The translations under genes and the position numbers were made by a program. The notes under the pieces were generated by a model. The model saw only the letters and a program-made list of their open reading frames with translations. It searched no databases and had not been told where the DNA came from. From a phage: a DNA stretch of 64,000 nt. How positions within the stretch are numbered: the first letter of the stretch is position 1; the number at the start of each line of letters is the position of its first letter. The DNA lies in sequence record PZ386970.1. One strand, written 5' to 3'. Positions 5,585-41,767 of the stretch are shown one piece after another.

Positions 5585-5614
5585 ACTATATCATAGTTTA
5601 TACTGTTTGTAAAC
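5585..5614 (-). promoter_or_regulatory. T4-type early promoter (-35 GTTTAC, -10 TATAGT)
   Basis: Minus strand reads GTTTAC-18 nt-TATAGT about 20 nt upstream of the endonuclease ORF start. Confidence 0.45.
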
Positions 5615-5628
5615 CCTAGAAACGAGAA

Positions 5629-5648
5629 AAGGAACTCCGAAGAGTTCC
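5629..5648 (-). terminator. putative rho-independent terminator
   Basis: Minus-strand hairpin GGAACTC-TTCG-GAGTTCC followed by UUUUCUCGUUUC, just upstream of the promoter above. Confidence 0.4.
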
Positions 5649-5860
5649 TATCCACATAGTACACCGTACAGAGGCTCATTTGAACTTTTAAATCGAATGG
5701 GCTTGTATGTAATAGTTCCTTCGGCAGAAGCTTTATCATAAGACTCTTTAAAACGTCTCATTCTTTCTGCTTTGCCTTTACGGATTTTATCGAAATTTTC
5801 AGAAGTCGGGATGTTCGTCATGCATAAGCACCTCTCAGAAAATGCCTAAATCGATTTCTC

Positions 5861-6082
5861 TCATCGTTTCCACCATTTCTTAACTTGAAATGAATCAACC
5901 CACACGAGTTGTTTTGGGTCTGCCTTTACAATAGGCAGACAAATTTCTGTAATAGAACCGTCGTGATATTCCTTTTCAGAAATTTTAACACAAAGAGGAC
6001 CTCCCAATTTAAGGGTGAACCCTGCGTTCAGCTTCAGACGTTTAAACTTTGTTTGAACTAGCGCCATTAATGATGTCCTCAA
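5861..6082 (-). CDS. hypothetical protein
   Basis: 73 aa ORF in the minus-strand early array; no motif. Confidence 0.3.
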   Translation of the reverse strand: MRTSLMALVQTKFKRLKLNAGFTLKLGGPLCVKISEKEYHDGSITEICLPIVKADPKQLVWVDSFQVKKWWKR

Positions 6083-6365
6083 TAGCCTGACGAGTAGTAA
6101 CCCACTGGATTTTAATTAACTTGTCATTATATGGTTGTCGTAGAATATCCCGAGATTTCTTAATAGCATATTCGTAAGCTTCGAAGTTGTTTTGAATTGC
6201 TGCTTCTTGAGCATGAGCATAAAGACGGTTTAGCTCAAAACGATTCTTTTTAAGAATCTTTTCGGATTTTTTACGTGCTTCAGCTTCATTTTTCTTTTGT
6301 ATTTCTTGTAGCATTTTGGCTACTGCATCTTCTGCTTCTTTATTTTCAATAATCTCGGTAGTCAT
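6042..6365 (-). CDS. hypothetical protein
   Basis: 107 aa charged, helical ORF; no motif. Confidence 0.35.
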   Translation of the reverse strand: MTTEIIENKEAEDAVAKMLQEIQKKNEAEARKKSEKILKKNRFELNRLYAHAQEAAIQNNFEAYEYAIKKSRDILRQPYNDKLIKIQWVTTRQAIEDIINGASSNKV

Positions 6366-6366
6366 A

Positions 6367-6582
6367 TTATCTCATTAAATTAAAATAAAAACGTCCGTCC
6401 TCTTCAATACAGAACTCGTACTCAACTGGAGTCCCATTTATCGAAAATGACACGTCATGTGGGTTCAAAGGGTCGATGTCAAAATTAATTTTAAATTCTC
6501 TACCCAACAGTTTTACCAAATAAGGGATTGCTTCGTCAAAAGGTTCTTCTAAGTAGTTAGAGATGTCAATTGTTATCCTCAT
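6367..6582 (-). CDS. hypothetical protein
   Basis: ORF trimmed to the internal Met (MRITIDIS...) to limit overlap with gp55. Confidence 0.35.
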
Positions 6583-7123
6583 ATAAAAAATCCAAACTAG
6601 GCGAATCGCTAACAACTTCCTTCTTTTCAGCCCCAGGAGCTTTATAAGCTGATTCTTCATAATGCGTCATTTTATCGTAGATGTCTTGAATAAACGTTTC
6701 ATCTACCAACGCTACCATATCATCGTCATGACTGTCGTAGACATTATGAACGAAGTAACTATATTTCTTTGCAACTTCCTTACGTTCTTTTTTGATACGT
6801 TGGACAAAAGCATTAAAACAAGCTCGAGTTATGTATGCATGTGGGTTATTGTACTTAGTTTCGTCGAAATTATGAAGTCCCTTAATAGAGGCTTCAATCC
6901 CATCTGCAATCATCTCCTGCTTCCAAGACTGGGTATATCCTGAAAAGTTGAAACGTTTGGACAGGCCTTCGGCGATAAGCATAATTGCTAAACCGATGGT
7001 ATCATTCTGACGAATAATTTTGTTTGGGTCTTTATTATTTAAGAGCTCCTTTTTCCACTCGATTATAGCGGCGAGAAGCTCTTTATTATTCACATAGTTA
7101 TTTTTAGGTTTTTGTTCAGTCAT
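6566..7123 (-). CDS. 55: late-transcription sigma factor gp55
   Basis: 185 aa; sequence (NYVNNKELL...[29 protein letters not shown]...) corresponds to T4 gp55 along its length as I recall it. Confidence 0.9.
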
Positions 7124-7195
7124 AAGTACCTCTTAGCTCAATTCATAGGTCTATTATATCATAATATTTAGAGACCTATCTTAAAGCACGAGATA

Positions 7196-7465
7196 CTATC
7201 GGAGCAAACAATAAGCCTGAAACACTTTTTCCATTAAACGTTTGAACTCATGGATATCGATATAAAGCTCAGTAAGACCGGCATTATAAAGAAAATCTAA
7301 AAAGTTCTCATGTGTTTCGTTATAGTCGCCTTCGTTTAATTGAGATACATGAGTTTCCCAAAAACCAACACCTTTAACGAATGGAAAATACGTGACTTTC
7401 ATGTATTCGTCAACATAAAATTCGCCAAGCTTTTCTTCTGTTATAGAAATTCGAGATAGTTTCAT
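7196..7465 (-). CDS. hypothetical protein (55.x region)
   Basis: 89 aa ORF in tight minus-strand array. Confidence 0.35.
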   Translation of the reverse strand: MKLSRISITEEKLGEFYVDEYMKVTYFPFVKGVGFWETHVSQLNEGDYNETHENFLDFLYNAGLTELYIDIHEFKRLMEKVFQAYCLLR

Positions 7466-7689
7466 TCTATTTCCTTTGCTGCTTCAAGAGCAGCATCCAG
7501 CGAATCAAATTGGTCAACGAAATCAATATTCAACGCATCGTCAACCGTAGCATATAACCACCATTGTTTGAATTCATATTCTAGGATAAATCCAGGCCCT
7601 TCAATCTGAGGAAGACCTAGACTATTTGTACCAACTTCGTAACCAGCTAGACGCAGGTCATTAATCAAAGTTTCTGTTAATACGCTCAT
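7462..7689 (-). CDS. hypothetical protein (55.x region)
   Basis: 75 aa acidic ORF, start overlaps upstream stop. Confidence 0.35.
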   Translation of the reverse strand: MSVLTETLINDLRLAGYEVGTNSLGLPQIEGPGFILEYEFKQWWLYATVDDALNIDFVDQFDSLDAALEAAKEIE

Positions 7690-8066
7690 TTTACCGCCTT
7701 AACAATTTTCAGGTCAGCGAATTTTTTCTTACGTTGATTTTTCATACGACGGATAGTCTTTTCAGAGATTTCATGTTTCTGATAAGCTTTAGATTCAACA
7801 CCAAATGCAGCAACGTCAAATTCAGAAAGAATATATTGTACTAGAATTTCACGAATAGAATTACGTCCAATTTTCTGGTCGTGTTTTTGCATGATTTCAT
7901 AAAGACGGAATTCCCACGCGTCAAGAACTTGAGGAGTAACAATATTGCCGGATTCCAGAAGAGCAACAACTTTATCGAAAGCGAAAGAATTAACTACGTT
8001 TTTGATTTTAGTAGACATATTATTTTCCTCGGTTATTTTATTATCCAACGAGAGAATTATACTCAT
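7686..8066 (-). CDS. hypothetical protein (55.x region)
   Basis: 126 aa ORF; start may be at a downstream Met. Confidence 0.35.
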   Translation of the reverse strand: MSIILSLDNKITEENNMSTKIKNVVNSFAFDKVVALLESGNIVTPQVLDAWEFRLYEIMQKHDQKIGRNSIREILVQYILSEFDVAAFGVESKAYQKHEISEKTIRRMKNQRKKKFADLKIVKAVK

Positions 8067-8084
8067 CTCCCAAGAGTTTGTATA

Positions 8085-8324
8085 TTATTTTTTAAGCATG
8101 AAAAGTAAGTAATTTGTATCACGTGGAGTAATATCAACACCCATATCAAAGATGCCTTTATAGATTGGGTATTTGTTTTCGGTTGTATCGAAGCTGAAAC
8201 TATTTCCATCACAACTAACAGTAATAGCATCTGTTAAAATGTCATACTCAACCCTAACAATTGAATCCCCAATTTTAACGTCGAGGTGTTTTTTGAATTT
8301 GATAAAATCTAATTCTTGGGCCAT
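8085..8324 (-). CDS. hypothetical protein
   Basis: 79 aa ORF; palindromic promoter-like element lies just upstream at about 8340-8385. Confidence 0.35.
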   Translation of the reverse strand: MAQELDFIKFKKHLDVKIGDSIVRVEYDILTDAITVSCDGNSFSFDTTENKYPIYKGIFDMGVDITPRDTNYLLFMLKK

Positions 8325-8387
8325 GATATTTTCCTCATTTTAAGACGATAGGAAGACATGTTATTATCTTCCTATCGTTGTACATTA

Positions 8388-8588
8388 TTAACCGAACTTT
8401 TTAGCGCCTTTCCAGCCTTCGTACATAACTGCACAAGTCAGTAGTACAGCGTGCTGGCATTCTTTGTATTTGTAAATCCAGAACCAGCGTAAGAAGTCTT
8501 CATCCTCAACGCCGTTGAGTTTCATATTGGCAAAGAATTCGGCACGTTCTTCACGAAGTTGCCATGACACAATATTTTCAGGATTCAT
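8388..8588 (-). CDS. hypothetical protein
   Basis: ORF trimmed to MNPENIVSW...; coupled overlap with neighbours. Confidence 0.3.
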   Translation of the reverse strand: MNPENIVSWQLREERAEFFANMKLNGVEDEDFLRWFWIYKYKECQHAVLLTCAVMYEGWKGAKKFG

Positions 8589-8719
8589 TTTGTGTTCCAC
8601 GCCCCATTTTCATCGATGAACTTAATCCAGTCATTTACAGACCATTTAGTTGTATCACCCTTTGGATTAACATTTAAAGTATATAATCCCTGCTTAAAAA
8701 GCATTCGTTTGATATTCAT
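8585..8719 (-). CDS. hypothetical small protein
   Basis: ORF trimmed to the internal Met (MNIKRMLFKQ...) so it packs without long overlap. Confidence 0.25.
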   Translation of the reverse strand: MNIKRMLFKQGLYTLNVNPKGDTTKWSVNDWIKFIDENGAWNTK

Positions 8720-8726: not shown

Positions 8727-9020
8727 TCAACTGTAACGATAACATTCGTTAGCTTTACGTTTGGCTTCAGTATGAGAAGTATTATAATCATACTCTTCTT
8801 TACTGTAAACATCTTTTTTCAACTTACGAACTTCTTTGCGGAGTTGTCGATTCATTTCATTCTTGACTTCAGAATCAACACCTTTCATACGTTTCCATTT
8901 ATCTGAGCGGAAGATGTTTTCAACCATGTTTTTGTGGCTAACACCATCAGGAGCTTTACGCTTACCAAAATAGTCGTAATCGCGAACTTTCAAATCTTTA
9001 CGACGATATGTTTTACCCAT
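8727..9020 (-). CDS. hypothetical basic protein
   Basis: Lys/Arg-rich ORF trimmed to MGKTYRRKDLK... Confidence 0.3.
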   Translation of the reverse strand: MGKTYRRKDLKVRDYDYFGKRKAPDGVSHKNMVENIFRSDKWKRMKGVDSEVKNEMNRQLRKEVRKLKKDVYSKEEYDYNTSHTEAKRKANECYRYS

Positions 9021-9027: not shown

Positions 9028-9276
9028 TCAGAGGTTGATTGATACAATGCGTTTGATAAAATTCACTTCACTTACTGAAAGGTCTTTAAGACCGATTGAT
9101 TCTAAACGCTGAGTAAGCGTCAACATCGGGATATAGTCCCATTGAGTTTTAGACGCTTGATAAGTACGAACGCCATTAGCAATTTCAACATGCAAATTTG
9201 AAATGGTAACGAATACCAGACGCTCATCATTAACTTTAAGGGTTAGAACAACTTTCTTTGAATCTAAACTAATCAT
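9028..9276 (-). CDS. hypothetical protein
   Basis: 82 aa ORF preceded by an early promoter. Confidence 0.4.
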   Translation of the reverse strand: MISLDSKKVVLTLKVNDERLVFVTISNLHVEIANGVRTYQASKTQWDYIPMLTLTQRLESIGLKDLSVSEVNFIKRIVSINL

Positions 9277-9304
9277 TTTATTTTCCTCTATAGTAGTTGG
9301 TTTA

Positions 9305-9333
9305 ATCTTAACATATCTATCGAGGATGTAAAC
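9305..9333 (-). promoter_or_regulatory. T4-type early promoter
   Basis: Minus strand: GTTTAC-17 nt-TAAGAT, about 30 nt upstream of the ORF starting at 9276. Confidence 0.45.
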
Positions 9334-10376: not shown

Positions 10377-10847
10377 TTAATCATGTTTCCACACCCCATC
10401 GGTATTTGACCAAAGTCGCTGATTATCTGATCCTCGCCACAGCTTTTTGGTCGGAAGATTTTTCTCATACTTCCCATCAATAATAACATCAACATATTTA
10501 AGCATTTCTAGCTGTTTAATATCTTCAAACTTATATCCTGTCCACAACCAAATGCTTTTATTAGGATAAAGATTTTTTACTGTTTGAACAATGCAATGAA
10601 TAACATCTCGGTTATCAGGATAGAGAGGGTCACCTCCGGTTATAGTCAATCCTTCTATATAATCATTATTCAAACATTCAATTAATTGTTCTAGTGTTTC
10701 ACCAGTGAATGGAATACCATTTCTAGCATTCCATGTTGATTTATTATAACACCCTTCGCATTTATGCAAACACCCTGTAACGAAAAGAACGACCCTACAA
10801 CCAGGGCCATTCACAAAATCGCAAGGATAAAACCTATCATAATTCAT
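10377..10847 (-). CDS. nrdG: anaerobic ribonucleotide reductase activating protein NrdG
   Basis: 156 aa radical-SAM activase with CLHKCEGC (Cx3Cx2C) cluster motif; directly downstream of nrdD. Confidence 0.9.
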   Translation of the reverse strand: MNYDRFYPCDFVNGPGCRVVLFVTGCLHKCEGCYNKSTWNARNGIPFTGETLEQLIECLNNDYIEGLTITGGDPLYPDNRDVIHCIVQTVKNLYPNKSIWLWTGYKFEDIKQLEMLKYVDVIIDGKYEKNLPTKKLWRGSDNQRLWSNTDGVWKHD

Positions 10848-12120
10848 TGGTGTTTAACCCTATGCATGATTTCTTTATTTTTACCGAGATTAAATCCGCG
10901 TTCGTTCGGATTTCCCAAATAGCCGCATGTTCTTCTTATGGTGTTCATCTTTTTAGGATCAGTTTCTCCACAAACTGAACAAACAAATCCGTTTTCAGTA
11001 GGAGTCATTTCATGAGTACTTCCGCATGTAAAACATTTATCCACTGGCATATTAACACCAAAATAATCTAAATGTTGTGCAGCATAATCCCAGACAGCCT
11101 CAAGACCCTTTAAATTGTTTTTCATATCTGGAAGTTCAACATAAGAAATGTGACCACCTGTCGCAATGAAATGATATGGCGCTTCACGAGAAATCTTTTC
11201 AAATGGAGTAATATTTTCTTCTACTGAAACATGGAAACTGTTAGTGTACCAGCCTTTATCGGTAACATCTTTTACACTTCCATATTTTTCTGTGTCTAGT
11301 TTACAGAAACGATAACAAAGGTTTTCAGCAGGAGTAGAATACAAACTAAAAGCAAATCCAGTTCTTTCAGTCCACTGTTTAAGATGAGCATTCATTTTAG
11401 TTAAAATTTCTTGCCCAATATCACGACCAACAAGAATATTCAATTCATGAATACCAATGTATCCTAAAGACACTGAACTTCTACCATTTTTAAATAACTC
11501 AATTATGTCATCATCAGGTTTAAGACGAACCCCGAATGCACCTTCTTGGTAAAGAATAGGAGCAACAGTCGCTTTAACTCCTTTTAAGGAACTAATTCTA
11601 CACATCAAAGCTTCAAAACATAAATCCATTCGTTCATTGAATAATTCAACAAATTTCTGTTCATTGAACTGTGTTCCAATATAAGAATCTAATGCGATAC
11701 GAGGAAGATTCAGTGTTACAACACCGAGATTATTACGTCCATCAAGAATTTCATTACCAGTCGAATCTTTCCATACACTCAAGAAACTACGGCAGCCCAT
11801 TGGAGAAACAGGAACAGATGAACCGGTAATAGCTTTATTATTCTTAACAGAAATAATGTCAGGATACATTCTTTTGCTTGCACATTCTAACGCAAGTTGT
11901 TTAATATCATAGTTCGGATCATCTTTATAAAGATTAACACCCTCTTCAACAAACATAACAAGTTTAGGAAAAATAGGAGTTATCCCATCACGACCAAGAC
12001 CTTTAATACGATTTTTCAGAATTGCTTTCTGAATCATTCGTTCAGTCCAGTCAGTTCCCGTACCAAATGTAATTGTTACAAAAGGCGTTTGTCCATTAGA
12101 GCTGAAAAGTGTATTTACTT
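10844..12120 (-). CDS. nrdD: anaerobic ribonucleotide reductase NrdD, exon 2 (5' boundary approximate)
   Basis: Glycyl radical motif RTCGYLG and C-terminal zinc ribbon CFTCGS...CSVCGE; reading frame continues from exon 1 across a roughly 1 kb intron; splice acceptor not mapped. Confidence 0.8.
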
Positions 12121-13164
12121 CATCATTATATTCAGCATGAGTCGCAAATTCATGCCCGTTTATATGAAACAACAAAATTTGGATAGTCCATAGATATGCA
12201 ACGTTCTTTTATAGTGCTAGGATGAAAATTTAGCGCTTTAGCTGCTTCTATATAAGACGTATACTTAATACCGTCAACAACCACATATTCAGGAACTTTA
12301 TGAATAGTAGTCTTAATACTCAAAACAAGAGGATGAGTTTCGACTTCACTTTCAGTGCAATTTAAATATTCCGCTGCTTTTTTAAAACTTCTAAAAGTTT
12401 TATTTTTAAGCTTTATCGATACTTGTTTTTTACTTTTTCGACTATTGATATTATTTTGCACATGTTCCTTAGATCTTCCATTTTTAGCATAATATTCAGC
12501 TACAGAAGATTTTATATTGTTTTTATGAGATTTGGATAACACTTTACCCTTATGAGCATCTCTTAATTTTTGAATATGTTCTTCAGTATCCGGATGTTTA
12601 TAAAACTTTTTACCGCCTATGGATTTATTTAAACATTTTTTGCTATAAAAATATTTACGTATGACCTCTTCTTCATGTTTTAATGCATCTTTATAACTAT
12701 CAAATGTTTTTAAAATTATCCATTTAGTAGGTGTATCAGTTTTTAAGCGTTCATTTATATACTTAGATGACGTTGTGTAAGTTTTCCAGTTTGTGGGCTT
12801 GTTTTTAATTGTTCTAAATTTTTTATAACCGATATAAATGTCGCCATTAGAAAACTTAACTAAGTATGTAAATGCGTCTTTATCTTTTATTTTAGTACAA
12901 CGTCTTTTTATCCATTTCATTGTTTCACCTCGTATTCATAAGATAATCTTATTTATACAAGATGACTGCTGCATGTCGCCATGCAGATTAGACTATATCT
13001 TCATCTTTCGATGCCGGCCGTTTCGAATAGCATTAGCTTCTATTCTACACCGTTACATTCATCACGGTTAGTCGTTAGGCATTTAGTTCAAAAGAACATT
13101 TAGCACGGGATTGTCTTACTAGAGAGGTTCCCCGTTTAGACCGGTTTTACATGAGCCTGAATTA
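12121..13164 (-). other. group I intron in nrdD (boundaries approximate)
   Basis: Exon 1 frame hits a stop at 13162-13164; GC-rich structured non-coding sequence at 12925-13160; embedded endonuclease ORF; same arrangement as the T4 nrdD intron. Confidence 0.6.
12150..12920 (-). mobile_element. intron-encoded GIY-YIG homing endonuclease
   Basis: 256 aa ORF inside the nrdD intron; TYL-x7-IYIGY arrangement near the N-terminus and basic repeats (KGKVLSKSHKNNIKSS, KNGRSKEH) resembling NUMOD3 modules. Confidence 0.65.
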
Positions 13165-13707
13165 AATTAACTCATACGCCTGAAATGCATCGTATACATC
13201 TTTTTCTGTTTTAGATTGAGCATAATTCAACGCATCAGCGATTTGCCATTTTTCTGCATCCTCAATATGTTTTGCATAGGTGCGTTTAACATAAGGAGAA
13301 AGTACTTTATCTACATTTGCAAAAGTCGTTCCGCCGTATTGATGGGAAGCAACCTGTGCAGTAATTTGTGCCATAATTGCAGTAGCAACGCCAATTGATT
13401 TAGGAGTTTCAATCTGTGCATTACCTAGCTTAAATCCATTTTCAAGCATTCCTTTTAAATCTACTAAACAGCAATTAGTAAAAGGAAGAGCAGGGGAATA
13501 ATCAATATCGTGCACGTGAATAATTCCGCTTTCATGCGCTTTCATAATAAAAGACGGGACCATATTTTTGGCAATGTGTTTAGACACAATACCAGCCATA
13601 AGGTCCCGTTGAGTTGGAAAAACACGAGAATCTTTATTAGCATTCTCGTTCAAAAGATCTTTATTAGTTTTATGAATTAATCCTTCAATTTCTTTTTCAA
13701 TTTTCAT
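13165..13707 (-). CDS. nrdD: anaerobic ribonucleotide reductase NrdD, exon 1
   Basis: 181 aa N-terminal portion of class III RNR; terminates at the intron boundary. Confidence 0.8.
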
Positions 13708-14837: not shown

Positions 14838-14938
14838 TTAATTCATTTATTGAAGGTTCATCATAACACGTTTCTTCGTCGTTGTAAACTGTTTCGACGT
14901 CTGGCTCGACTGTCTCCCATCGAGCGGTATACCATGGT

Positions 14939-15940: not shown

Positions 15941-16245
15941 TATAATGTTCTCTCAAATTTGTGGAAGCATTTACGGCATTTCAATTTCAAGTTATCAGTG
16001 GTCCAGTTAACCAGTTGGACTTGGATAGTTCCACATTCCGGGCATGGGTGTTTTGCTGCCGATTTGGCAGCATTTTCACGTCGTTCAACCATTTTCATTA
16101 TTTCGTTCCATGCCGGAGGAACGAACTCTTCTTCACCGTGGATTTTATCTCGCTGAACAAATTCAATCTTTGAACTATCGTCAATAAACTTAACCAAGCC
16201 ATGATTAGTGCTCATATCAATATCCTCTAAAAGACGTAGTTTCAT
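15940..16245 (-). CDS. hypothetical zinc-ribbon protein
   Basis: 101 aa with CPEC...CRKC (Cx2C-x20-Cx2C) near the C-terminus. Confidence 0.45.
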   Translation of the reverse strand: MKLRLLEDIDMSTNHGLVKFIDDSSKIEFVQRDKIHGEEEFVPPAWNEIMKMVERRENAAKSAAKHPCPECGTIQVQLVNWTTDNLKLKCRKCFHKFERTL

Positions 16246-17192
16246 TATAACACCTCAATGGCATTTCGTAAACCGTCCGCTTTCGCATTCAGAGCTTTTA
16301 ACGATTTAGTCTGTTCTTTAATCTGGGCTTCGACTTCTTTCAGACGAGATTTGAGGTACTCACGTTCTTCGCTCAAGTTGTCAACTTTTTCTACTTTAGG
16401 TTCTTTAATAGTCTTAAGTTTATACTCGTTAGGGTTCTTCAGCTTAATTCGGGTGCGAGAACTGAATAACATTGAACCGTTATCTTCGGATTCGTCGAAC
16501 GTTTCAACAACATCCATAGTCTCTAACAATGTAATAAGTTTATAAGACAACGAACGAATAGTTTTGTTGTGCTTATTAATTTCTTCGGCTTTCATGGTAC
16601 CGAGATTACGTGAGTAATAATAAGGAACCTGGATATTAATTGATAATGATGCGTTACCATTACCGGTTGGTTTGAATACTGCAGTAACCCAATCTTTAAC
16701 ATGAACTTTATTTGTACGACCATCACCACCTGTGAATAATTTACGAGAATGTTTAAAAAGCATATTCACTTGGTTATTGAATTCACAAGCAAATTTATCA
16801 GCAAATTTAGTTTCAGGAATGGTAGAGAACCAATCGGCTAAATGGGTCTTTTTAACATCGTTAATAATAGTAAATTCAACTAAATCTGATTTAGATTCCA
16901 CTGATTTGAAGCATGGCTTCATAAAGTTTTTAATATTATCGCGAGCTACAGTAGAAGATAATAAACGAGAACGTTTGAACCATTGAAGCAGTGTCCCTAA
17001 TGAATGAGAATACGCATTCTGAGTATCTTTACAGATATGATTTTCTTGGTCTGTGTATGTACCAAAATCTCGAAGAATACCACTTACTACATCTCGGTGT
17101 GGAACATCAAATCCTAGTGTACCAGTGGCGCGCTGAGCATGAACGTTAGCGATAAGACCGGCAAAGTATTCAATGTAATGTGAACGTGTCAT
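16245..17192 (-). CDS. hypothetical protein with C-terminal coiled coil
   Basis: 315 aa; C-terminal 60 aa are heptad-like and charged (LKSRLKEVEAQIKEQTKSLKAL); no catalytic motif recognised. Confidence 0.5.
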   Translation of the reverse strand: MTRSHYIEYFAGLIANVHAQRATGTLGFDVPHRDVVSGILRDFGTYTDQENHICKDTQNAYSHSLGTLLQWFKRSRLLSSTVARDNIKNFMKPCFKSVESKSDLVEFTIINDVKKTHLADWFSTIPETKFADKFACEFNNQVNMLFKHSRKLFTGGDGRTNKVHVKDWVTAVFKPTGNGNASLSINIQVPYYYSRNLGTMKAEEINKHNKTIRSLSYKLITLLETMDVVETFDESEDNGSMLFSSRTRIKLKNPNEYKLKTIKEPKVEKVDNLSEEREYLKSRLKEVEAQIKEQTKSLKALNAKADGLRNAIEVL

Positions 17193-17220
17193 AATATTTT
17201 CCTCTCGTTAAGATAGATTT

Positions 17221-17249
17221 ATTATACTCCAACCATCCTTGGTTGTACA
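17221..17249 (-). promoter_or_regulatory. T4-type early promoter (-35 TGTACA, -10 TATAAT)
   Basis: Minus strand TGTACA-17 nt-TATAAT, 30 nt upstream of the ORF starting at 17192. Confidence 0.45.
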
Positions 17250-18835: not shown

Positions 18836-18862
18836 GTTTTACCTCCAGTAGTTGATAGGTCT

Positions 18863-18891
18863 ATAATAACATAACCATAGACCTTGTAAAC
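18863..18891 (-). promoter_or_regulatory. T4-type early promoter inside palindromic element
   Basis: Minus strand GTTTAC-17 nt-TGT-TATTAT; the -10 sits inside the inverted repeat TAGGTCTAT / ATAGACCT. Confidence 0.5.
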
Positions 18892-20664: not shown

Positions 20665-20692
20665 GACCCCCTAAAGGGACCCGAAGGTCCCC
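20665..20692 (-). terminator. UUCG-tetraloop hairpin element (terminator or stability element)
   Basis: Minus strand GGGGACC-UUCG-GGUCCC followed by UUUAGGGGGUC, directly after the stop of the gene at 20697-20963. Confidence 0.4.
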
Positions 20693-22994: not shown

Positions 22995-23310
22995 ATTATT
23001 CACCAATTAAAGTTTCAACAAAATTCACCAAAGCATTCTGGCAAGCGTCAACCTGATTTTCATAAAAGTCTCCGTTATCATTTACCGCATGATAAGCTAC
23101 ATCACTCAAATCTGAATCGGCTTCACGTAAGTCACGGATAAGGTCCATCAATTTATTAGCTTGTTCACGGGTCATTTTACCATACTCGTTTCAATAAGAT
23201 TCACTATGCCGTTTACCATGTTATAAGTAAACATCGGATAATTGTATTGTACTACAACATAAGCGATAAGCAAAAGTTTCATTTTGTTCTCCAATTGTTT
23301 TGATAGGACT

Positions 23311-23340
23311 ACTATAACATAGTCCTACCAAGATGTAAAC
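23311..23340 (-). promoter_or_regulatory. T4-type early promoter inside palindrome GATAGGACTA...TAGTCCTA
   Basis: Minus strand GTTTAC-18 nt-TATAGT. Confidence 0.45.
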
Positions 23341-23736: not shown

Positions 23737-23763
23737 AATGTTCTCCTCTAGTAAGTAAGGTCT

Positions 23764-23792
23764 ACTATAACACAACCTGAGGAGAAGTAAAC
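23764..23792 (-). promoter_or_regulatory. T4-type early promoter
   Basis: Minus strand GTTTAC-17 nt-TGT-TATAGT. Confidence 0.5.
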
Positions 23793-23803
23793 TGATAGAT
23801 GCC

Positions 23804-23830
23804 AAAAAGCCCCAACCGTAAGGAAGGGGC
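23804..23830 (-). terminator. rho-independent terminator
   Basis: Minus strand AGCCCC-loop-GGGGCU followed by UUUUU, immediately after the rI stop; near-identical to the terminator at 39034-39063. Confidence 0.55.
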
Positions 23831-26973: not shown

Positions 26974-27001
26974 TTTGATTTCTCCTCTAGTTGACAGGTC
27001 T

Positions 27002-27030
27002 ATAGTAACACAACTAGAGGAGAAGTAAAC
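27002..27030 (-). promoter_or_regulatory. T4-type early promoter
   Basis: Minus strand GTTTAC-17 nt-TGT-TACTAT, 30 nt upstream of the regB start with a GAGGAG ribosome-binding site between. Confidence 0.5.
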
Positions 27031-28937: not shown

Positions 28938-29115
28938 TTAGTTTCTCTTAAGGTTGGGGCCATTCCATGGCGCATGAATTGTCCATTTCTGTATTTACCC
29001 ATTACCGCACTTGGGCTCGACCTTATTACAGGTTGGTGGGAATCCCTCATAGAATCATGAGGTCCAGGTTGTTCCCATTTTATTTAAATGTAAATAGGCC
29101 TAAGTATCGGCCTTA

Positions 29116-29694
29116 TTAATTACCACGGGCTGCATTAGCAACGGCGTAAGCGTACTGAACATTAGCGTCTTTAAATGTACCTTTAGAGGTATCTATTTCC
29201 GCCTTAAAGCCGCCTTTAGCCATTACATCGGCAAATTCTTTACGGAAAGCCATTGCGTCAAGACCTTTCCATGATGATTTATGCTTGGCAAATTCAAGAC
29301 CAGCGTAGTTGACAGCCTTAGCTAATTTATTATCAATAACCCATTTACCTGCTTTAGGCACAAACTTCGGACCTTTTTGTTTAGAGAACAGTTTTAAATT
29401 CCAACGACGAAGGTCACTGTCGGCTTTAACAAAAGCTGCATCTAAGTTACTAGCAACAACATCTTCAATATGAGCAAATTTAAGTCCGTCAACTTCAATA
29501 TTTAGATCGTTACGCCAGCGTAGTCCTTCCCAAGCGAAGGCTTTAAAATCAGAAGCTTTTGTGGCTAGATATCGTTCAAGTGGAGCAGTTTTAGGGTCAA
29601 AGCCGTTTCCGCCACGATAATTCCACTCGTCCTTATTAATGCCTTGGACTTTTCCTGCAAAGGCCTCGGCGATAAATTCTTTATACGTTTTCAT
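29116..29694 (-). CDS. internal protein (IPIII-like) with capsid-targeting N-terminus
   Basis: 192 aa starting MKTYKEFIAE, the T4 internal-protein capsid-targeting/protease-cleavage sequence. Confidence 0.6.
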   Translation of the reverse strand: MKTYKEFIAEAFAGKVQGINKDEWNYRGGNGFDPKTAPLERYLATKASDFKAFAWEGLRWRNDLNIEVDGLKFAHIEDVVASNLDAAFVKADSDLRRWNLKLFSKQKGPKFVPKAGKWVIDNKLAKAVNYAGLEFAKHKSSWKGLDAMAFRKEFADVMAKGGFKAEIDTSKGTFKDANVQYAYAVANAARGN

Positions 29695-29720
29695 TTTTGT
29701 TCCTATTGATTTAATTTATG

Positions 29721-30779: not shown

Positions 30780-30806
30780 AATTTCCTCCAAGTAGTTGAT
30801 GAATGT

Positions 30807-30836
30807 ATAGTATCAAAACCCTTGGAGGAAGTAAAC
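30807..30836 (-). promoter_or_regulatory. T4-type early promoter
   Basis: Minus strand GTTTAC-18 nt-TACTAT upstream of denV. Confidence 0.45.
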
Positions 30837-31604: not shown

Positions 31605-31638
31605 AATACCTCCCACGTTTATAGGAGGTATTTATTAC

Positions 31639-32974: not shown

Positions 32975-33001
32975 AATATTCTCCTCATGTTTAATAGGAC
33001 T

Positions 33002-33031
33002 ACTATAACATAGTCCTATAATTGTGTAAAC
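33002..33031 (-). promoter_or_regulatory. T4-type early promoter inside palindrome
   Basis: Minus strand GTTTAC-18 nt-TATAGT; palindrome GGACTACTATAACATAGTCC. Confidence 0.45.
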
Positions 33032-34277: not shown

Positions 34278-34293
34278 TTAATTTGATAGGACT

Positions 34294-34323
34294 ACTATAA
34301 CATAGCCCTATCTTGTTGTAAAC
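34294..34323 (-). promoter_or_regulatory. T4-type early promoter inside palindrome
   Basis: Minus strand GTTTAC-18 nt-TATAGT. Confidence 0.45.
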
Positions 34324-35122: not shown

Positions 35123-35478
35123 TTTCTACATTCCTTAATAAAGTTTTCGATTGTTTCATTTTCACGTTTAGCTAGGAGTTCATTATAACTAATCATTTGA
35201 GAAGCGTAAACCTTTTTATTTTTCTTGTTATGGTTTATAAAATCGTAGTAAAAATAGACTACAGTACAAAATGATGCGATGGATGCAAAGGCTTGGGTAT
35301 ACCGTAAGTCCTGCCATTGGTCTGTGAATCCACTGGTATTCCCTATAAATCCTAACACAACTCCGTCAATAAGAAATCCAACTAATCCAAAGGCAAATCC
35401 CATGCCAATACTCATAATAAAAATTAGAATGTTCTCACCAAGAGAAGGCCATACGGTTAAGAGTTGAGGCTTTTGCAT
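35119..35478 (-). CDS. membrane protein, FIKECR-tail family member
   Basis: 119 aa; hydrophobic helices; C-terminus ETIENFIKECRK. Confidence 0.45.
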   Translation of the reverse strand: MQKPQLLTVWPSLGENILIFIMSIGMGFAFGLVGFLIDGVVLGFIGNTSGFTDQWQDLRYTQAFASIASFCTVVYFYYDFINHNKKNKKVYASQMISYNELLAKRENETIENFIKECRK

Positions 35479-36472: not shown

Positions 36473-37066
36473 TTATTTCAAAGAGTTAATATATTCTTGT
36501 ACATCAGCAGAAGTGGTTTCGACACCGGCTGGAGTGCCATTGAACGTTTCAACACGAGTCAGAGTGTCTTCGATATCAACCTTAGTCAGTGCAGCGATTT
36601 CAATTACATCATCAGCCGTAGAGATACCAAGGGCATTGGCTGCTCGAGTTTCACGAATGTATTCGAGTTTGATTGCCAGGTTCTGACGAGCATCGTCAAG
36701 TTCAACCACCTTACGAGCAATTTCAATTCGCATAGCGGCATACCCGTCAGCTTTTGTATTAAGTTGTTCGGCAGTTCGACGATACAGAAGACCAAGCTTA
36801 GCATGCATGGTAACATCTTGTCCTTCAGCCAGGAGCTTACGAATTTCACGTTCCTTAGAAGCGGCTTGCTTGTTCTTTTCATTAACAAGTTCGCGAATAC
36901 GTTTTTCTTCATTAATAGATTTAACAGAAGCCGTTTTTAGTTCTTTGATTTGGGTAATCAACTTATCTGCAGCTGCGTTATACTGTTCTTCGACAGTCAG
37001 ATTTTTAGCCATAGCAGTACCCAGTTTAGTGCGGATAAATTCAACAAGTTTCTTCAGTGTGTTCAT
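36473..37066 (-). CDS. coiled-coil protein (possibly PspA/IM30-like)
   Basis: About 197 aa, predominantly helical with charged heptad-like segments; PspA resemblance is by composition and length only. Confidence 0.45.
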
Positions 37067-37136
37067 ATTATTACCTTTCAATTGGTGGTTTATTATCCAT
37101 GAGAGCATTATACTCTGCTCTCAGGAGTTTGTACAC

Positions 37137-37385
37137 TTATTTGTACGAATTAATAATCTCTTCCATTTTATCCAGAACATGGATATCGATTATACGAGGA
37201 AGTGCCGAAAGATTAGAACCGTCGAAAGATTTAAGGTCTTCCAAAATAATATTTTCAATGGCTTTTAAAGCTTCCGCAGATTCTGATGCAGAATTAAATT
37301 CAGGAATTTCTCCAAAAAGACGTAAGAATGAACCAAAGTATTCTGCGGCGATTTCTTTAGCTTGTTCGATATCAGACTTAAACAT
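37137..37385 (-). CDS. hypothetical acidic protein
   Basis: Start moved to MFKSDIEQ..., downstream of the promoter at 37414-37442. Confidence 0.4.
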   Translation of the reverse strand: MFKSDIEQAKEIAAEYFGSFLRLFGEIPEFNSASESAEALKAIENIILEDLKSFDGSNLSALPRIIDIHVLDKMEEIINSYK

Positions 37386-38254: not shown

Positions 38255-38282
38255 AACATTTTCCTCTGTAGTCGATAAGTCT

Positions 38283-38331: not shown

Positions 38332-38360
38332 GACCCCCTAATGGGGACCGAAGTCCCCAT
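38332..38360 (-). terminator. UUCG-tetraloop hairpin element
   Basis: Minus strand AAUGGGGAC-UUCG-GUCCCCAUU followed by AGGGGGUC, directly after the stop at 38364; same architecture as the element at 20665-20692. Confidence 0.4.
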
Positions 38361-38363
38361 TCT

Positions 38364-38990: not shown

Positions 38991-39033
38991 TGATGGTCCT
39001 TAGAAGGTAGGTTTATTGTTTACTATATTTATA

Positions 39034-39063
39034 CAAAAAAGCCCCAACCTTTCGGAAGGGGCT
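39034..39063 (-). terminator. rho-independent terminator
   Basis: Minus strand AGCCCC-UUCCGAAAGGUU-GGGGCU followed by UUUUUU; closes the tRNA region. Confidence 0.55.
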
Positions 39064-39111
39064 ATGCCTTGCGGCAACCTTGTCGGGGTTCCACCTGCTA
39101 AGGCAAGTGTT

Positions 39112-39206
39112 TGTACGAAACGCCGGGATTTGAACCCGGTTATTAAGTAGTTGACGCTACTCAATATTTTTAAAAGGCCATATCTCGACCATATCCGAAC
39201 GTTCCG
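39112..39206 (-). ncRNA. tRNA-like RNA (unresolved; possible class II tRNA or small stable RNA)
   Basis: Canonical T-arm CCGGG-UUCAAAU-CCCGG on the minus strand and a possible 7-bp acceptor pairing about 92 nt apart; I could not fold a canonical D-arm or anticodon arm by eye. Confidence 0.3.
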
Positions 39207-39374
39207 TCAAAAACGCTACTCGGCTTACGGCAAAGATATTTCCTCGAATCGATAATTCTGTGCGCCGTTTCTGCTGTGATGTAAGGGGATATTAACAAAT
39301 CATAAAGATTTATTAAGACCAGTCCTTACTCAGGGAACATCAGTCCGACGACTTGCCGGTAGCGACCCGGCTTC

Positions 39375-39722
39375 TTATTTTGGCATATCATCAATTTGTT
39401 CTCGACGCCTACGCCATAGATTAATCGCTTCATTGACACATTCTGCGTTTGGTATATGACGGCAATAATATAATGATTCGCGTTTCTGGAACCGATGTTG
39501 CAACGGGATTTCGTTTAAAAGGTCTTTACGGTCAAAGTATTCAAAACTAGTTAACCCGGAACGGTTTTTAAGAAACTTCCAATGTCCGAATTCATTTTGA
39601 AAATAAACATAATCAGCATGCTGATACAGCGAATTAATTAACCTATCGGAAATAACTGTTTCACGTTCGTTAAAATAAAACGTTAAATCATGAACTACCA
39701 GATAAACATTGCCTTTCATATT
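39375..39722 (-). CDS. hypothetical protein within tRNA region
   Basis: Start moved to MKGNVYLVVHDL..., preceded by a GAGGA ribosome-binding site; the longer ORF-track start would overlap the tRNA-Arg gene. Confidence 0.4.
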   Translation of the reverse strand, partial: NMKGNVYLVVHDLTFYFNERETVISDRLINSLYQHADYVYFQNEFGHWKFLKNRSGLTSFEYFDRKDLLNEIPLQHRFQKRESLYYCRHIPNAECVNEAINLWRRRREQIDDMPK

Positions 39723-39737
39723 TTCCTCACTTGAAGT

Positions 39738-39814
<77 letters not shown>

Positions 39815-39817
39815 GAT

Positions 39818-39892
39818 TGGTGACCCTGGCTGGTTTCGATCCAGCTACCTATCAGTTATGAGCTGACAGCTCTCCCATTGAGCTACAGGGCC
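39818..39892 (-). tRNA. tRNA with CAU anticodon (Met or Ile2-type)
   Basis: Hand-folded cloverleaf on the minus strand: acceptor GGCCCUG/CAGGGUC, D-stem GCUC/GAGC, anticodon loop CUCAUAA, T-arm GCUGG-AUCGAAA-CCAGC, encoded CCA; 3 nt from the tRNA-Arg 5' end. Confidence 0.7.
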
Positions 39893-39971
39893 TTAATAAC
39901 TTTCTATTATGAAAGGCACTTTAGAGCACCTTTGGTAATAGAGGGTATGAATTAATAATAACACATAATTC

Positions 39972-40496
39972 TTAAAGCAAATCAATCATTTTAACAGTTG
40001 GCAAAACAATTTCTTCTTCAATATAAGCAAATTCAACACGTTCAACTACACGCAAGAAATCGTAATCATAGTATTCAGAAGCATAGCCAAGAATATCAAT
40101 AAGTCCTTGAGATATCTCATCGCCTTTAACAAAGAACAGGTCGAATACGCGGGCTTCGTCTTCTTCAGATTTATCACCAAGGTCTACTTCGATGCCAAAG
40201 ACCTTTTTAATAAATTCCGGTTGGAGTTGGTCTGAGAACAGTCCTTCAACCAAGTATTCATAGATTAAAAGCGAGCAATCACTGAATGGCGTATTGCCAC
40301 AGTAACGTTCAGCTTTAGTGCTGGAATGACGGCTCTTAAATTTCTTCAAGAGGTATTTGAACTGTTGGAGCTCATGCTCTTCCACTTCAAACAATGTTTT
40401 GGTTTTATAGTTGTCGCCGTCATTTTCATAGGTAGTGACATCAATTACGTAACCCTTAGGAATTGTACTGCCTAAACAAATATTCATTTTACTCAC
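39972..40496 (-). CDS. hypothetical acidic protein
   Basis: 174 aa ORF. Confidence 0.45.
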   Translation of the reverse strand: MSKMNICLGSTIPKGYVIDVTTYENDGDNYKTKTLFEVEEHELQQFKYLLKKFKSRHSSTKAERYCGNTPFSDCSLLIYEYLVEGLFSDQLQPEFIKKVFGIEVDLGDKSEEDEARVFDLFFVKGDEISQGLIDILGYASEYYDYDFLRVVERVEFAYIEEEIVLPTVKMIDLL

Positions 40497-40783
40497 CGTA
40501 CCATATTAATGTAATTATATTCAATGCAACGTAATTTCAAAGGGTTCTTGAAAATATCATATTCAAGAGGGCCTTTTTCTGTTTCGATAAAGAAATCAAA
40601 GTTCACACTATTAAATTTGCGGTCTTCCCAAAGTAATTTAACCTGTGAAGATGAACGGTCGATATAAACTTTTTCAACTTCAAAGTTGGTCAAAATACCA
40701 TAGTCATCAACTAGTGCTTTAGCTGCACGTTGGTCGCTTTCATATCCATTCTCAACGGATTTTACCTTAGCATAAAGAATCAT
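40493..40783 (-). CDS. hypothetical protein
   Basis: 96 aa ORF. Confidence 0.4.
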   Translation of the reverse strand: MILYAKVKSVENGYESDQRAAKALVDDYGILTNFEVEKVYIDRSSSQVKLLWEDRKFNSVNFDFFIETEKGPLEYDIFKNPLKLRCIEYNYINMVR

Positions 40784-41160
40784 GAATGTTCCACCACTTC
40801 AAAGGTATGAGCATCAACAATATGATACCAGTCAAAATTTTCTTCTGCGTTTTTATAAATTTCGCGAAGAGCCTCAACAGTTTTACCTTTAGCGTAAAGG
40901 TCGTCGATACCACCATAAGGATAACAGTCATAACCAGCAAACAGAAGGAAATTAATAGTTTCTGTAGGGGCTGGATGCAGAACGCCGTTATCATCTACTA
41001 CTTCAAAGAATGTGTAAGAAGGAGTACAAGTTTTAATCCAAGCCCATGCTTGAGCCGCTGAATCAAATGGTCTGCGTATCAAACGACAATCAGGGTCTTT
41101 AGAAGGATTTGCTTCAAAATCCGCATATACATGATATTTCATTTTACTCATCTTTTGCAA
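40780..41160 (-). CDS. hypothetical protein
   Basis: 126 aa ORF. Confidence 0.4.
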   Translation of the reverse strand: MQKMSKMKYHVYADFEANPSKDPDCRLIRRPFDSAAQAWAWIKTCTPSYTFFEVVDDNGVLHPAPTETINFLLFAGYDCYPYGGIDDLYAKGKTVEALREIYKNAEENFDWYHIVDAHTFEVVEHS

Positions 41161-41329
41161 TTTTATCCATAACGATAGCGATTAAGCCGATTAGAAATGC
41201 TACTACCAATGAGATAGAATTTTCTGTTGTTGTCAGTAGTCCACAAATGAATCCTACAAACATCGAAAAACTAAAAGCCATTGAAGCAATTACTACAGCA
41301 ACATTACGAATCAGTTCAGCACGTTTCAT
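41144..41329 (-). CDS. hypothetical small membrane protein
   Basis: 61 aa, two hydrophobic helices. Confidence 0.4.
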   Translation of the reverse strand: MKRAELIRNVAVVIASMAFSFSMFVGFICGLLTTTENSISLVVAFLIGLIAIVMDKIAKDE

Positions 41330-41357
41330 TTTATTCTCCTCAGTAGTTGATAGGGTA

Positions 41358-41387
41358 ATAGTATCACTACCCTATCTAAAAGTAAAC
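41358..41387 (-). promoter_or_regulatory. T4-type early promoter inside palindrome GATAGGGTA...TACCCTATC
   Basis: Minus strand GTTTAC-18 nt-TACTAT. Confidence 0.45.
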
Positions 41388-41398
41388 GGTTTTATAAA

Positions 41399-41707
41399 CT
41401 ATTTTATTCCGCGTGATGCAATCGTATTCTGCCGTTTAACGCCAGTTTGTTTAAAGTTATGATTGTCGAGTTGATCGGTACGAGCAACTCCGAATGATGA
41501 TTTAATCTTAGCTTTAGATCCTTTAGTTATAGAAATAAACATCTCGGGAGCCCCTTTCTTAAAGTCCGAAGCAATTACTTCAACACCGTTCTTAGCAAGT
41601 GACCTCAGAATTGCTTCCGCATACTCATCATCAAGACCCGCTTGAGTATGAATAACGAATGTCTTTGGTGCAGCTGCTTCACAGATAAATTCTTTAAATG
41701 TTTTCAT
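41399..41707 (-). CDS. internal protein I-like (capsid-targeting N-terminus)
   Basis: 102 aa starting MKTFKEFICEA; located directly upstream of 57B, the ipI position in T4. Confidence 0.55.
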   Translation of the reverse strand: MKTFKEFICEAAAPKTFVIHTQAGLDDEYAEAILRSLAKNGVEVIASDFKKGAPEMFISITKGSKAKIKSSFGVARTDQLDNHNFKQTGVKRQNTIASRGIK

Positions 41708-41737
41708 TTTATTTTCCTAATTAATTTTGATAGGACT

Positions 41738-41767
41738 ACTATAACATAGTCCTATCAGCATGTAAAC
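41738..41767 (-). promoter_or_regulatory. T4-type early promoter inside palindrome GATAGGACTA...TAGTCCTATC
   Basis: Minus strand GTTTAC-18 nt-TATAGT, upstream of the ipI-like gene. Confidence 0.5.

Follow-up and report, generated by a model that had tools for sequence, protein, structure and literature searches.

In the hyperplastic regions of phages RB49 and phi1, an early promoter, a stem-loop and a Shine-Dalgarno (SD) sequence are combined in cassettes known as promoter early stem-loops (PeSLs) (Arbiol et al. 2010, PMC2839356). Five positional subclasses have been described, and the stem-loop may be placed after the -35 and before the -10 box, or overlap the -10 box (PMC2839356). PeSLs were later extended to PST/T4 and nt-1/KVP40 and are expected in all T4-like phages (Comeau et al. 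2014, PMC4122927). Analogous, non-homologous elements are present on T4 early promoters in the internal protein (IP) loci of T-even phages (Arbiol et al. 2010, PMC2839356), and the T4 genes e, soc, 49 and I-TevI carry a hairpin with an internal promoter that sequesters the ribosome-binding site (Uzan & Miller 2010, PMC3014915). Here we analyzed the repeated early promoters, and the hairpins that enclose their -10 boxes, in a stretch of 64,000 nucleotides (nt) of phage DNA (record PZ386970.1), referred to as the window. An earlier note on this DNA had described an early promoter embedded in a recurrent palindrome and compared it with the PeSLs. This observation is real and statistically solid, although overstated, and its first reading is essentially right. 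In our judgment these are probably T4-type early promoters, about half of which have a spacer kept complementary to the sequence downstream of the -10 box, with additional roles in RNA and in recombination.

Early promoters and the helix across the -10 box

The window has 96-98% identity to Mosigvirus genomes, T4-type coliphages of the RB69 group (e.g. vB_EcoM_G2469, here G2469, and phi25-307). The early region lies on the minus strand, from position 1 to about 45,300, and is followed by late baseplate genes on the plus strand. Its gene order is 46/47, 55, nrdD/G, 49, nrdC, tk, regB, denV, e, the tRNA genes and ipI, and 1-4. The pattern TTTAC-N14-16-TGnTAYWRT was found 15 times, against 0.19 expected, always on the minus strand and within 5585-41766. 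The -10 box with its tail (TAYWRT-ANWCYTATC, at most one mismatch) also occurs 15 times in the window, against 1.1 expected. A relaxed scan followed by inspection gave 21 intergenic early promoters, all on the minus strand within 5585-41766, and the figure of about 20 copies in this interval is therefore correct. The promoters, the palindromes at them and the terminator-like hairpins described below are all on this strand.

The cassette occupies about 75 nt and consists of an A-rich region, a GTTTAC-type -35 box, a spacer of 16-17 nt, a TGn-extended -10 box, a start region (CCTATCAA), the SD and the ATG, these last two some 25-35 nt downstream. An SD at +9 to +23 followed by a start codon was detected in 20 of the 21 promoters; for the remaining one, P37107, the automatic search returned neither and the start was set by hand at 37066. 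These features support the interpretation as sigma-70-type early promoters, which the sigma-70 RNA polymerase of the host would read straight after infection. A generic sigma-70 scan showed no enrichment in the AT-rich window, its 71 and 68 sites comparing with 71.5 and 65.5, respectively, for shuffled sequences. Such a scan has no power in DNA of this composition, and only the T4-type pattern with the TGn extension discriminates. In RB69, 57 early promoters were predicted genome-wide, with C preferred at -3 to -1 (Nolan 2006, PMC1524935). The promoters of the window are orthologous to predicted RB69 promoters, and their CCTATC sequence fits this preference.

Two statements on the extent of the module need correction. 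The matching stretch of an annotated relative with 97% identity contains about 89 genes, so that the module precedes roughly one gene in four and not most minus-strand genes, as had been proposed. The recurrent tail motif is real in its exact form, GATAGGWCTA being found 7 times against 0.17 expected, but the exact AGACCTATC/AGTCCTATC tail, AG(A/T)CCTATC, is present in 7 copies only. With two mismatches GATAGGWCTA is at chance level (99 observed, 91 expected), and the short motif alone is thus unfit for counting copies. CCTATC is also found in promoters that have no left arm, which indicates that it belongs to the start region and that the spacer has adapted to it.

Hairpins with perfect arms were enumerated over the window with a loop limit of 24 nt, together with helix searches anchored at the promoters, which recovered the hairpin at 30783-30830 with its 28-nt loop, beyond the limit of the enumeration. 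A general repeat search at seed 8 returned mostly overlapping AT-rich palindromes and was replaced by this enumeration. A helix encloses the -10 box in 11 of the 21 promoters, and two more palindromes (8345-8378 and 7145-7179) have no working promoter. Perfect arms of 8-14 bp were found at 41728-41757, 41349-41376, 37100-37123, 32994-33019, 30783-30830, 26980-27024, 23304-23327, 18857-18884, 8345-8378 and 7145-7179, while the remaining inverted repeats have one mismatch or one G.U pair. Across the -10 box, 28% of the predicted promoters have Watson-Crick stems of 8 bp or more, compared with 2-3% in three controls (right arms swapped among promoters, left arms shuffled, and random positions). 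Stems of at least 7 bp occur in 12 of 32 predicted promoters in the window, 10 of 29 in RB69 and 11 of 26 in T4, compared with 6-8% in the controls. On folding, 10 of 14 hairpins have free energies (dG) of -12.7 to -21.6 kcal/mol and z-scores of -4.3 to -7.9. The palindromes reported earlier are thus genuine, but they occur at only about half of the promoters and their arms are not one sequence: the window has at least six unrelated arm pairs, with arms such as GATAGGACTA, GATAGGGTA, GATAGGAAGA, AGGTCTAT, TGAGAGCA, TTCCTCCAAG and TTCTCCTCTAGTTG.

Two geometries were distinguished. The left arm of class I is part of the spacer, at about -25 to -16, and its right arm is at -7 to +3; the TGn-extended -10 box forms an 8-nt loop and the SD remains free. 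The ipI-like gene (start codon at 41707) is preceded by P41738 (41738..41766), whose hairpin TGATAGGACTA/TAGTCCTATCA (41728-41757; dG -17.7, z -6.6) has TGtTATAG in its 8-nt loop. The tRNA.4-like gene has P41358 (41358..41386) with GATAGGGTA/TACCCTATC (41349-41376; z -4.8), and e.6 has P37107 (37107..37135) with TGAGAGCA/TGCTCTCA (37100-37123; z -4.7), arms unrelated to those of the other copies. Further members are P34294 (34294..34322) with GATAGGGCTA/TAGTCCTATC, including one G.U pair (34285-34312; z -5.8), P33002 (33002..33030) with ATAGGACTA/TAGTCCTAT (32994-33019; z -4.3), and P23311 (23311..23339), the promoter of a small gene, with TTGGTAGGACTA/TAGTCCTATCAA, also with one G.U pair (23300-23331; dG -18, z -7.1). 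The hairpin AGGTCTAT/ATAGACCT (18857-18884; z -4.5) at P18863 (18863..18890), upstream of nrdC.8, is in a shifted register. At P8056 (8056..8084), the promoter of 55.2, class I pairing is weak (GGGAGA/TCTCTC with a G.U pair; z -1.1).

In class II the left arm begins directly after the -35 box (TTCTCCTC...), at -30 to -16, and the right arm is the SD itself (GAGGAGAA), and a 17-30 nt loop holds the -10 box and the start, with +1 predicted 7 nt past the -10 box. There are four members. The regB promoter P27002 (27002..27029) has the 14-bp hairpin TTCTCCTCTAGTTG/CAACTAGAGGAGAA (26980-27024; dG -21.6, z -4.7), whose right arm contains the SD GAGGAG, and the denV promoter P30807 (30807..30835) has TTCCTCCAAG/CTTGGAGGAA (30783-30830; z -5.9), where the right arm is again the SD. 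The hairpin TTCTCCTC/GAGGAGAA (23741-23786; z -1.8) at P23764 (23764..23791), upstream of a mobD.2a-like gene, is weak, and P9305 (9305..9332), which has a weak -10 box (TAAGAT), carries TCCTCGATAG/CTATAGAGGA with one mismatch (9284-9326; z -2.3). Register and loop length (8 to about 28 nt) vary between copies, which fits pairing rather than a protein site.

Conservation of the pairing among relatives

The downstream genes served to find orthologous promoters in the window, RB69, phi25-307, G2469, JS98 and T4. The helix is kept with different arms at regB, denV, e.6, 55.2 and ipI, and also at the small gene that follows P23311. At regB the arms are TTCTCCTCTAGTTG/CAACTAGAGGAGAA in the window and RB69, ATCTCCTGTAG/CTACAGGAGAT in JS98 and TTTTCCTCTTGACTG/CAGTTAAGAGGAGAA in T4, and at denV they are TTCCTCCAAG/CTTGGAGGAA in the window but TCTCCTGTAG/CTACAGGAGA in JS98 and T4. 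The e.6 promoter has TGAGAGCA/TGCTCTCA in the window, GAGGACA/TGTCCTC in JS98 and ATTAGA/TCTAAT in T4, and 55.2 has 7-bp stems in phi25-307 (GAGAGCA/TGCTCTC), RB69 (CGAGAGA/TCTCTCG) and JS98 (GGGACCA/TGGTCCC). The ipI arms TGATAGGACTA/TAGTCCTATCA of the window correspond to TGATGAGGTA/TACCTCATCA in T4, where the orthologue of P23311 has AGTTGACAAGATTA/TAATCTTGTCAACT and the counterpart of P41358 has ATAGGGT/ACCCTAT in a different register. The nrdC.8 promoter shows a class I solution in the window and spacer-SD pairing, that is class II, in JS98 and T4. The T4 promoters with a helix across the -10 box include those of ipI, ipII, ipIII, regB and denV and the orthologue of P23311. Since the arms differ between copies and covary, they follow a structural rule and are not one repeated palindrome. 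Conservation of the arms beyond the promoter hexamers, on which the earlier note had staked its reading, is found for the pairing, which is kept by compensation, but not for the arm sequence itself. Together with the controls, these comparisons show that T-even early promoters, including those of T4, maintain pairing across the -10 box.

A scan of IMG/VR with the promoter boxes only (GTTTACA-N14-TGTTATAGT) gave new arm pairs in metagenomic T4-like contigs, namely GATAGGGCTA/TAGCCCTATC, TAAGGGTCA/TGACCCTTA, CTAGGGCCA/TGGCCCT and GGTAGGAAG/CTTCCTACC, while chance matches had 1-5 of the 10 class I pairs. Among all 166 unique promoters selected by the pattern, class I pair counts fall into two modes, one near 3 and one at 9-10 of 10; a stricter rule, with at least two further promoters per locus, left 10 sequences and was dropped. 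In a gapless alignment of 46 rows, many of them related and 10 of them hand-picked for good pairing, 67.2% of the cells are paired, compared with 58.6 +/- 1.3 in shuffles (none of 500 reached the observed value) and 29-48% with slid partners, and the covariation score is 0.32 versus 0.21. For ten class II leaders, RNAalifold predicted a helix between spacer and SD, and 6 of its 16 pairs show double changes. A strand test counted 12 internal G.U against 5 A.C pairs (9 against 5 once duplicates among orthologues were removed), a difference that is not significant, and selection may act at the RNA or the DNA level.

The palindrome at 8345..8378 (ACGATAGGAAGA/TCTTCCTATCGT; dG -20.1, z -7.9) has perfect 12-bp arms, and phi25-307 and G2469 carry its 10-nt loop in exactly reverse-complemented form (on the minus strand, TAATAACATG in the window and CATGTTATTA in these two phages). 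The inversion puts a TGtTATTAT -10 box on the plus strand, and the minus-strand promoter is thereby lost. RB69 has the unflipped orientation, with a 1-nt insertion in the left arm. The flipped form was found in at least 9 other phage records at 98% identity or more over 61 nt, and the unflipped form is covered by 83 records, so that both orientations are in circulation among Mosigvirus records. Among the loci scanned no other flip was found, the 28 promoter hairpins comprising 27 forward and 1 flipped. So exact an inversion shows that the arms do interact at the DNA level. Minute inversions of hairpin loops are known from intergenic hairpins of chloroplasts. The present case resembles them in that a 10-nt loop between perfect arms is reverse-complemented among otherwise near-identical phages, but differs in that the loop holds the -10 box, so that the flip moves the TGn-extended -10 to the other strand.

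This inversion, with both forms in circulation, is also what would be expected if the palindromes were a neutral by-product, in which quasi-palindromes in spacer and leader are perfected by template-switch mutation and thus mimic compensation. The arms sit exactly at the promoter positions that are free to vary, and the G.U versus A.C comparison gave no clear strand bias, both of which would suit such an origin. We nevertheless regard it as unlikely, because the helices persist at orthologous promoters across T4, JS98 and RB69, whose coding identity is about 70-75%, the class II arms repeatedly target the SD and not just any free segment, stems exceed the controls about 5- to 10-fold in three genera, and only one of the 28 promoter hairpins is flipped.

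Predicted roles in RNA and in recombination

RNA from the cassette's own promoter is predicted to start about 7 nt past the -10 box and hence to be without the 5' arm, which confines the hairpin to read-through RNA or single-stranded DNA. Partition-function folding was carried out for the three strong class II hairpins (P27002, P30807 and P23764), P9305 being left out. The probability that the SD is unpaired was 0.54-0.76 in own-promoter RNA and 0.11-0.17 in read-through RNA (regB 0.76 and 0.13, denV 0.59 and 0.11, P23764 0.54 and 0.17, respectively). In class I it was unchanged or higher in read-through RNA at P41358, P41738, P37107 and P23311, and at P33002 a competing distal pairing lowered it from 0.57 to 0.27.

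For class II (regB, denV, the mobD.2a-like gene and P9305) these values suggest that read-through RNA would be poorly translated, while transcripts from the own promoter would be open. Early SD sequences, that of regB among them, are cleaved at GGAG by RegB, and RNA secondary structure gives protection from this cleavage (Uzan & Miller 2010, PMC3014915). As the 3' arm of class II is the SD, read-through RNA would be both poorly translated and shielded at its GGAG from RegB. The class I hairpin (GATAGGACTA-N8-TAGTCCTATC and variants), which in most cases ends about 10 nt ahead of a GGAG-type SD, is most likely an intercistronic RNA structure. It might weakly attenuate transcription, or, as we infer with more reserve, act as a 3' barrier that guards the upstream cistron after cleavage of the leader at GGAG.

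A more ambitious reading, which we put forward tentatively and hold to be rather doubtful, is that the hairpins enclosing the -10 box are a general T-even device that marks the origin of a transcript. RNA from the own promoter would be open, translated immediately and then inactivated by RegB at its exposed GGAG, and RNA derived from upstream would be folded, with class II masking the SD and shielding the GGAG and class I serving as the 3' barrier for the upstream cistron after cleavage. If true, this would give a sequence-encoded basis for the distinction between immediate-early and delayed-early expression and would account for the "additional regions of consensus" that the early promoters of T4 have, and loop inversions such as that at 8345-8378 would be natural switches that turn off or reverse single promoters.

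The stem-loops might instead be terminators or attenuators that insulate transcription units, as is the case for one GC-rich stem-loop of the RB49/phi1 PeSLs. Terminator activity was measured for the stem-loop of PeSL211/210, and attenuation was proposed as a general role (Arbiol et al. 2010, PMC2839356). The hairpins of the window are likewise intergenic and stable, with -13 to -22 kcal/mol, and one RB49 element has a stem across the -10 box followed by TTTTC. However, T-runs follow none of the hairpins across the -10 box in the window, and its lists of terminator-like structures contain none of these hairpins. The stems are AT-rich and shorter than the G4/C4 stems of RB49, and termination does not explain why class II arms are centred on the SD. 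Separate hairpins of the UUCG or GGGGC type with T-runs lie upstream of P5585, P38283 and P23764, which is one more reason to consider this explanation improbable. The GC-rich stem and U-run of an intrinsic terminator were not found; the sequences after the stems are AAAATT, AACTAC, AATCAAAATG and others. With no U-tract after the stems, the terminator activity of RB49/phi1 cannot be assumed here. The order of terminator and then promoter at P5585, P38283 and P23764 is canonical and distinct from the hairpins across the -10 box. Another hairpin at about 39025-39060, of the UUCG-tetraloop or GGGGC/GCCCC type and with a T-run, lies upstream of a late-type box (TATAAATA) near 39020.

It is very unlikely that the inverted repeat serves as the operator of some dimeric DNA-binding protein on the -10 box, such as a factor for the shut-off of early promoters about 3 min after infection, which neither ModA nor AsiA explains in T-even phages (Hinton 2010, PMC2988021). 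The palindrome is centred on the -10 box and several copies have outer half-sites GATAGG...CCTATC, but promoters that lack a left arm have CCTATC too, and it is hence start-region sequence. The arms are wholly different between copies (TGAGAGCA, GATAGGAAGA, TTCCTCCAAG, TTCTCCTCTAGTTG) and compensatory between species, register and spacing vary, G.U pairs are tolerated, and half of the early promoters have no repeat. No conserved half-site at a fixed spacing was found for a palindromic operator, as the arms covary and the spacing varies.

Comparison of the elements with gene-content breakpoints, which had been suggested as a check, placed three junctions within sequence common to two cassettes. 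The gene nrdC.5, present in RB69 and phi25-307, is flanked in RB69 by two promoters that share the core ACAACCAAGGATGGTTGGAGTATAAT; at this site the window has one chimeric promoter, P17221 (17221..17249), which precedes nrdC.3 and has no hairpin, with a 53-bp overlap of the alignment blocks at 17195-17247. Between P37414 (37414..37442) and P37107 the window has an extra small open reading frame (ORF; 37137-37385), preceded by P37414 and absent in RB69 and G2469, with the junction at 37142/37434; in both relatives a single promoter consists of the upstream half of P37414 and the downstream half of P37107. At P9305 the gene for gp55.6 is missing relative to RB69, phi25-307 and G2469, with the junction in the leader (9273-9287). 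As they are repeated, the cassettes would also offer short stretches of homology at which recombination can insert or delete single genes, and these three overlap junctions constitute the only direct evidence for cassette-mediated gain and loss. The proposal that the copies frame individual accessory genes thus holds for some of them but not for others. Compared with RB69, phi25-307 and G2469 at four loci, 26 of 71 breakpoint ends fall in cassettes, which make up 4.8% of the region, an enrichment that is weak alone because viable indels end in intergenic DNA, much of which is promoter.

The hairpins might also be cruciform or single-stranded DNA structures that target recombination or replication, with genome plasticity as the selected role. 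Junctions do lie in the cassettes and one loop has been inverted, but the three clear junctions are in the common core of -35 box, spacer and -10 box or in promoters without hairpins (P17221, P37414), and not in the arms. Cruciforms also form poorly from arms of 8-14 bp when the loops are 8-28 nt. A mini-circle crossover was mapped to a PeSL loop and a recombination protein that binds stem-loops was speculated on, yet T4 recombination requires short homology only (Arbiol et al. 2010, PMC2839356), and we give this explanation hardly any probability.

Several points weigh against our interpretation of a spacer kept complementary for roles in RNA and recombination. Some half of the promoters are without a hairpin and yet are conserved, the class I hairpins do not reach the SD and their benefit is a guess, and we infer promoter activity, function at the RNA level and the role of class I from sequence only. 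The outcome of the strand test, the choice of rows in the 46-row alignment and the limited weight of the breakpoint enrichment are to be added to these.

The other cassettes have weak pairing or none. P38283 (38283..38310; tail AGACTTATC) shows weak pairing only, with a UUCG-tetraloop hairpin upstream (38340-38361) and a gene-content breakpoint relative to RB69 at 38263-38266. No significant hairpin was found at P37912 (37912..37940), which has a TGTACA -35 box and the same tail AGACTTATC, nor at P30066 (30066..30094; tail TACTCTATC) in the internal protein locus. P37699 (37699..37727), upstream of a frd.3-like gene, has no hairpin, and its tail is AATCACATC in the window and AGTCCTATC in RB69 and G2469. 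Two promoters with the tail AGACCTATC, P20617 (20617..20644) and the nrdC.10 promoter P20339 (20339..20366), have no hairpin across the -10 box, the first with a small hairpin upstream (20665-20681). The GGGGC/GCCCC stem with its T-run upstream of P23764 is at about 23800-23830. P5585 (5585..5613) precedes an ORF of 275 amino acids (aa) missing from the relatives, with a UUCG-tetraloop hairpin and T-run upstream (5630-5649) and a breakpoint at 5627. The palindrome at 7145..7179 (ATAGGTCT/AGACCTAT; z -2.2), around a TATAAT upstream of gene 55, has no T4-type -35 box; upstream of the -10, at a distance of 23 nt, there is a perfect MotA-box-like TGCTTTA, too distant for a standard middle promoter.

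T4-type promoter matches were also observed within coding sequence of the minus strand, at 8781-8809 (55.5), 10743-10770 (nrdG), 14860-14888 (49.1), 16244-16272 (the nrdC.3/nrdC.2 junction) and 35182-35210 (e.3). The first three are kept in T4 too, and a breakpoint relative to G2469 (35211) coincides with the -35 box of the last. Other differences in gene content were noted. The segment 4760-5626 (about 870 bp), not found in RB69, phi25-307 or G2469, is flanked by gene 47 and a-gt.2, the position of a-gt and mobB in T4, and its upstream end is at P5585 and the UUCG hairpin; the 275-aa protein of its ORF (4743-5570, minus strand) had no Pfam match. A 1-kb insertion relative to the same phages (12124-13171) divides the nrdD frame (ORFs 10844-12175 and 13162-13707) and includes an ORF of 256 aa (12150-12920, minus strand) that would encode a free-standing homing endonuclease, given its SegE-type GIY-YIG and NUMOD1 domains. 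The internal protein locus (29037-29704) has an ipIII-like gene 88.5% identical to T4 ipIII, with unrelated ORFs in RB69. Only two tRNA genes, Arg-tct and Met-cat, are present (39738-39892, minus strand), the same as in RB69, while T4 has eight.

Comparison with known systems

The likeness to the PeSL cassettes of T4-type phages is supported both by structure and by gene gain and loss at three sites. As in a PeSL, an A/T-rich region, an early promoter, a stem-loop, an SD and a start codon form a compact intergenic cassette. Many copies are found in variable early regions, the stem folds only in read-through RNA, and junctions from cassette to cassette explain single-gene indels between close relatives. 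Encapsidated mini-circles, which arise when neighbouring cassettes exchange, are a further trait of PeSLs. The window has the early promoter, with a GTTTAC-type and not a TTGACA -35 box, the stem-loop in 11 of 21 copies, the SD with its start codon, and the indels. Seven promoters at 112-130 kb of RB49 read TTGACA-GGGGATC...GATCCCC-TATAmT, with both arms in the spacer (TTGACAGGGGATC...GATCCCCTATAmT). Their G4/C4 stems differ from the arms of the window, which flank the -10 box, are richer in AT and vary by copy. Homology to the RB49/phi1 elements was not found, since the RB49 sequences are unlike anything in the window, and the two sets are analogues. In PST/T4 the stem-loops lie just upstream of the promoter (PMC4122927), whereas in the window the stems extend across the -10 box.

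The elements of the T-even IP loci (Repoila et al. 1994, as described in Arbiol et al. 2010) are similar in having a T4-type early promoter with an AT-rich, variable stem-loop beside polymorphic IP genes. P41738, upstream of the ipI-like gene, and the ipI, ipII and ipIII promoters of T4 all have the -10 box in the hairpin loop, and the IP locus of the window (29037-29668) is replaced relative to RB69. Here, however, the hairpins also reach regB, denV, e.6, 55.2, nrdC.8 and ORFan genes, with covariation across genera.

Class II alone resembles the hairpins of T4 e, soc, 49 and I-TevI, in that an internal promoter follows the 5' arm and the SD forms the 3' arm, which would mask long transcripts and leave promoter-proximal ones open; class I hairpins exclude the SD. 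The internal promoter of the window is of the early sigma-70 type and not a late gp55 promoter (TATAAATA), so that the predicted effect is to translate only the immediate-early transcript rather than only the late one. One hairpin of the window, at 31605-31632 on the minus strand (AATACCTCC-TATAAACGTG-GGAGGTATT), abuts the ATG of the lysozyme gene e (MNIFEMLR) and is the only one with a late-type box in its loop, the late-promoter-like TATAAA. It is the RB69-group counterpart of the hairpin that masks the ribosome-binding site of T4 gene e.

In the literature searched, with Repoila 1994 and Miller 2003 outside the search, we found no account of these elements for the RB69 group, nor of the spacer-SD class at early promoters, and a search on dyad symmetry or hairpins at T4 early promoters and on T4 start-site mapping returned nothing relevant. 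The comparison leads to testable predictions, namely masking of the SD in read-through RNA at regB and denV and an SD-free intercistronic hairpin elsewhere. For annotation and engineering, the cassettes mark likely recombination joints, and a gene moved with "its promoter" would take with it half a regulatory hairpin. The elements described here are thus of a known kind, in a phage group where they had not yet been catalogued, and do not represent a new kind of system. They extend the PeSL idea to the RB69 group (Mosigvirus) and add to it two geometries and a pairing across the -10 box that is kept by compensation across four genera, rather than a repeat of one phage.

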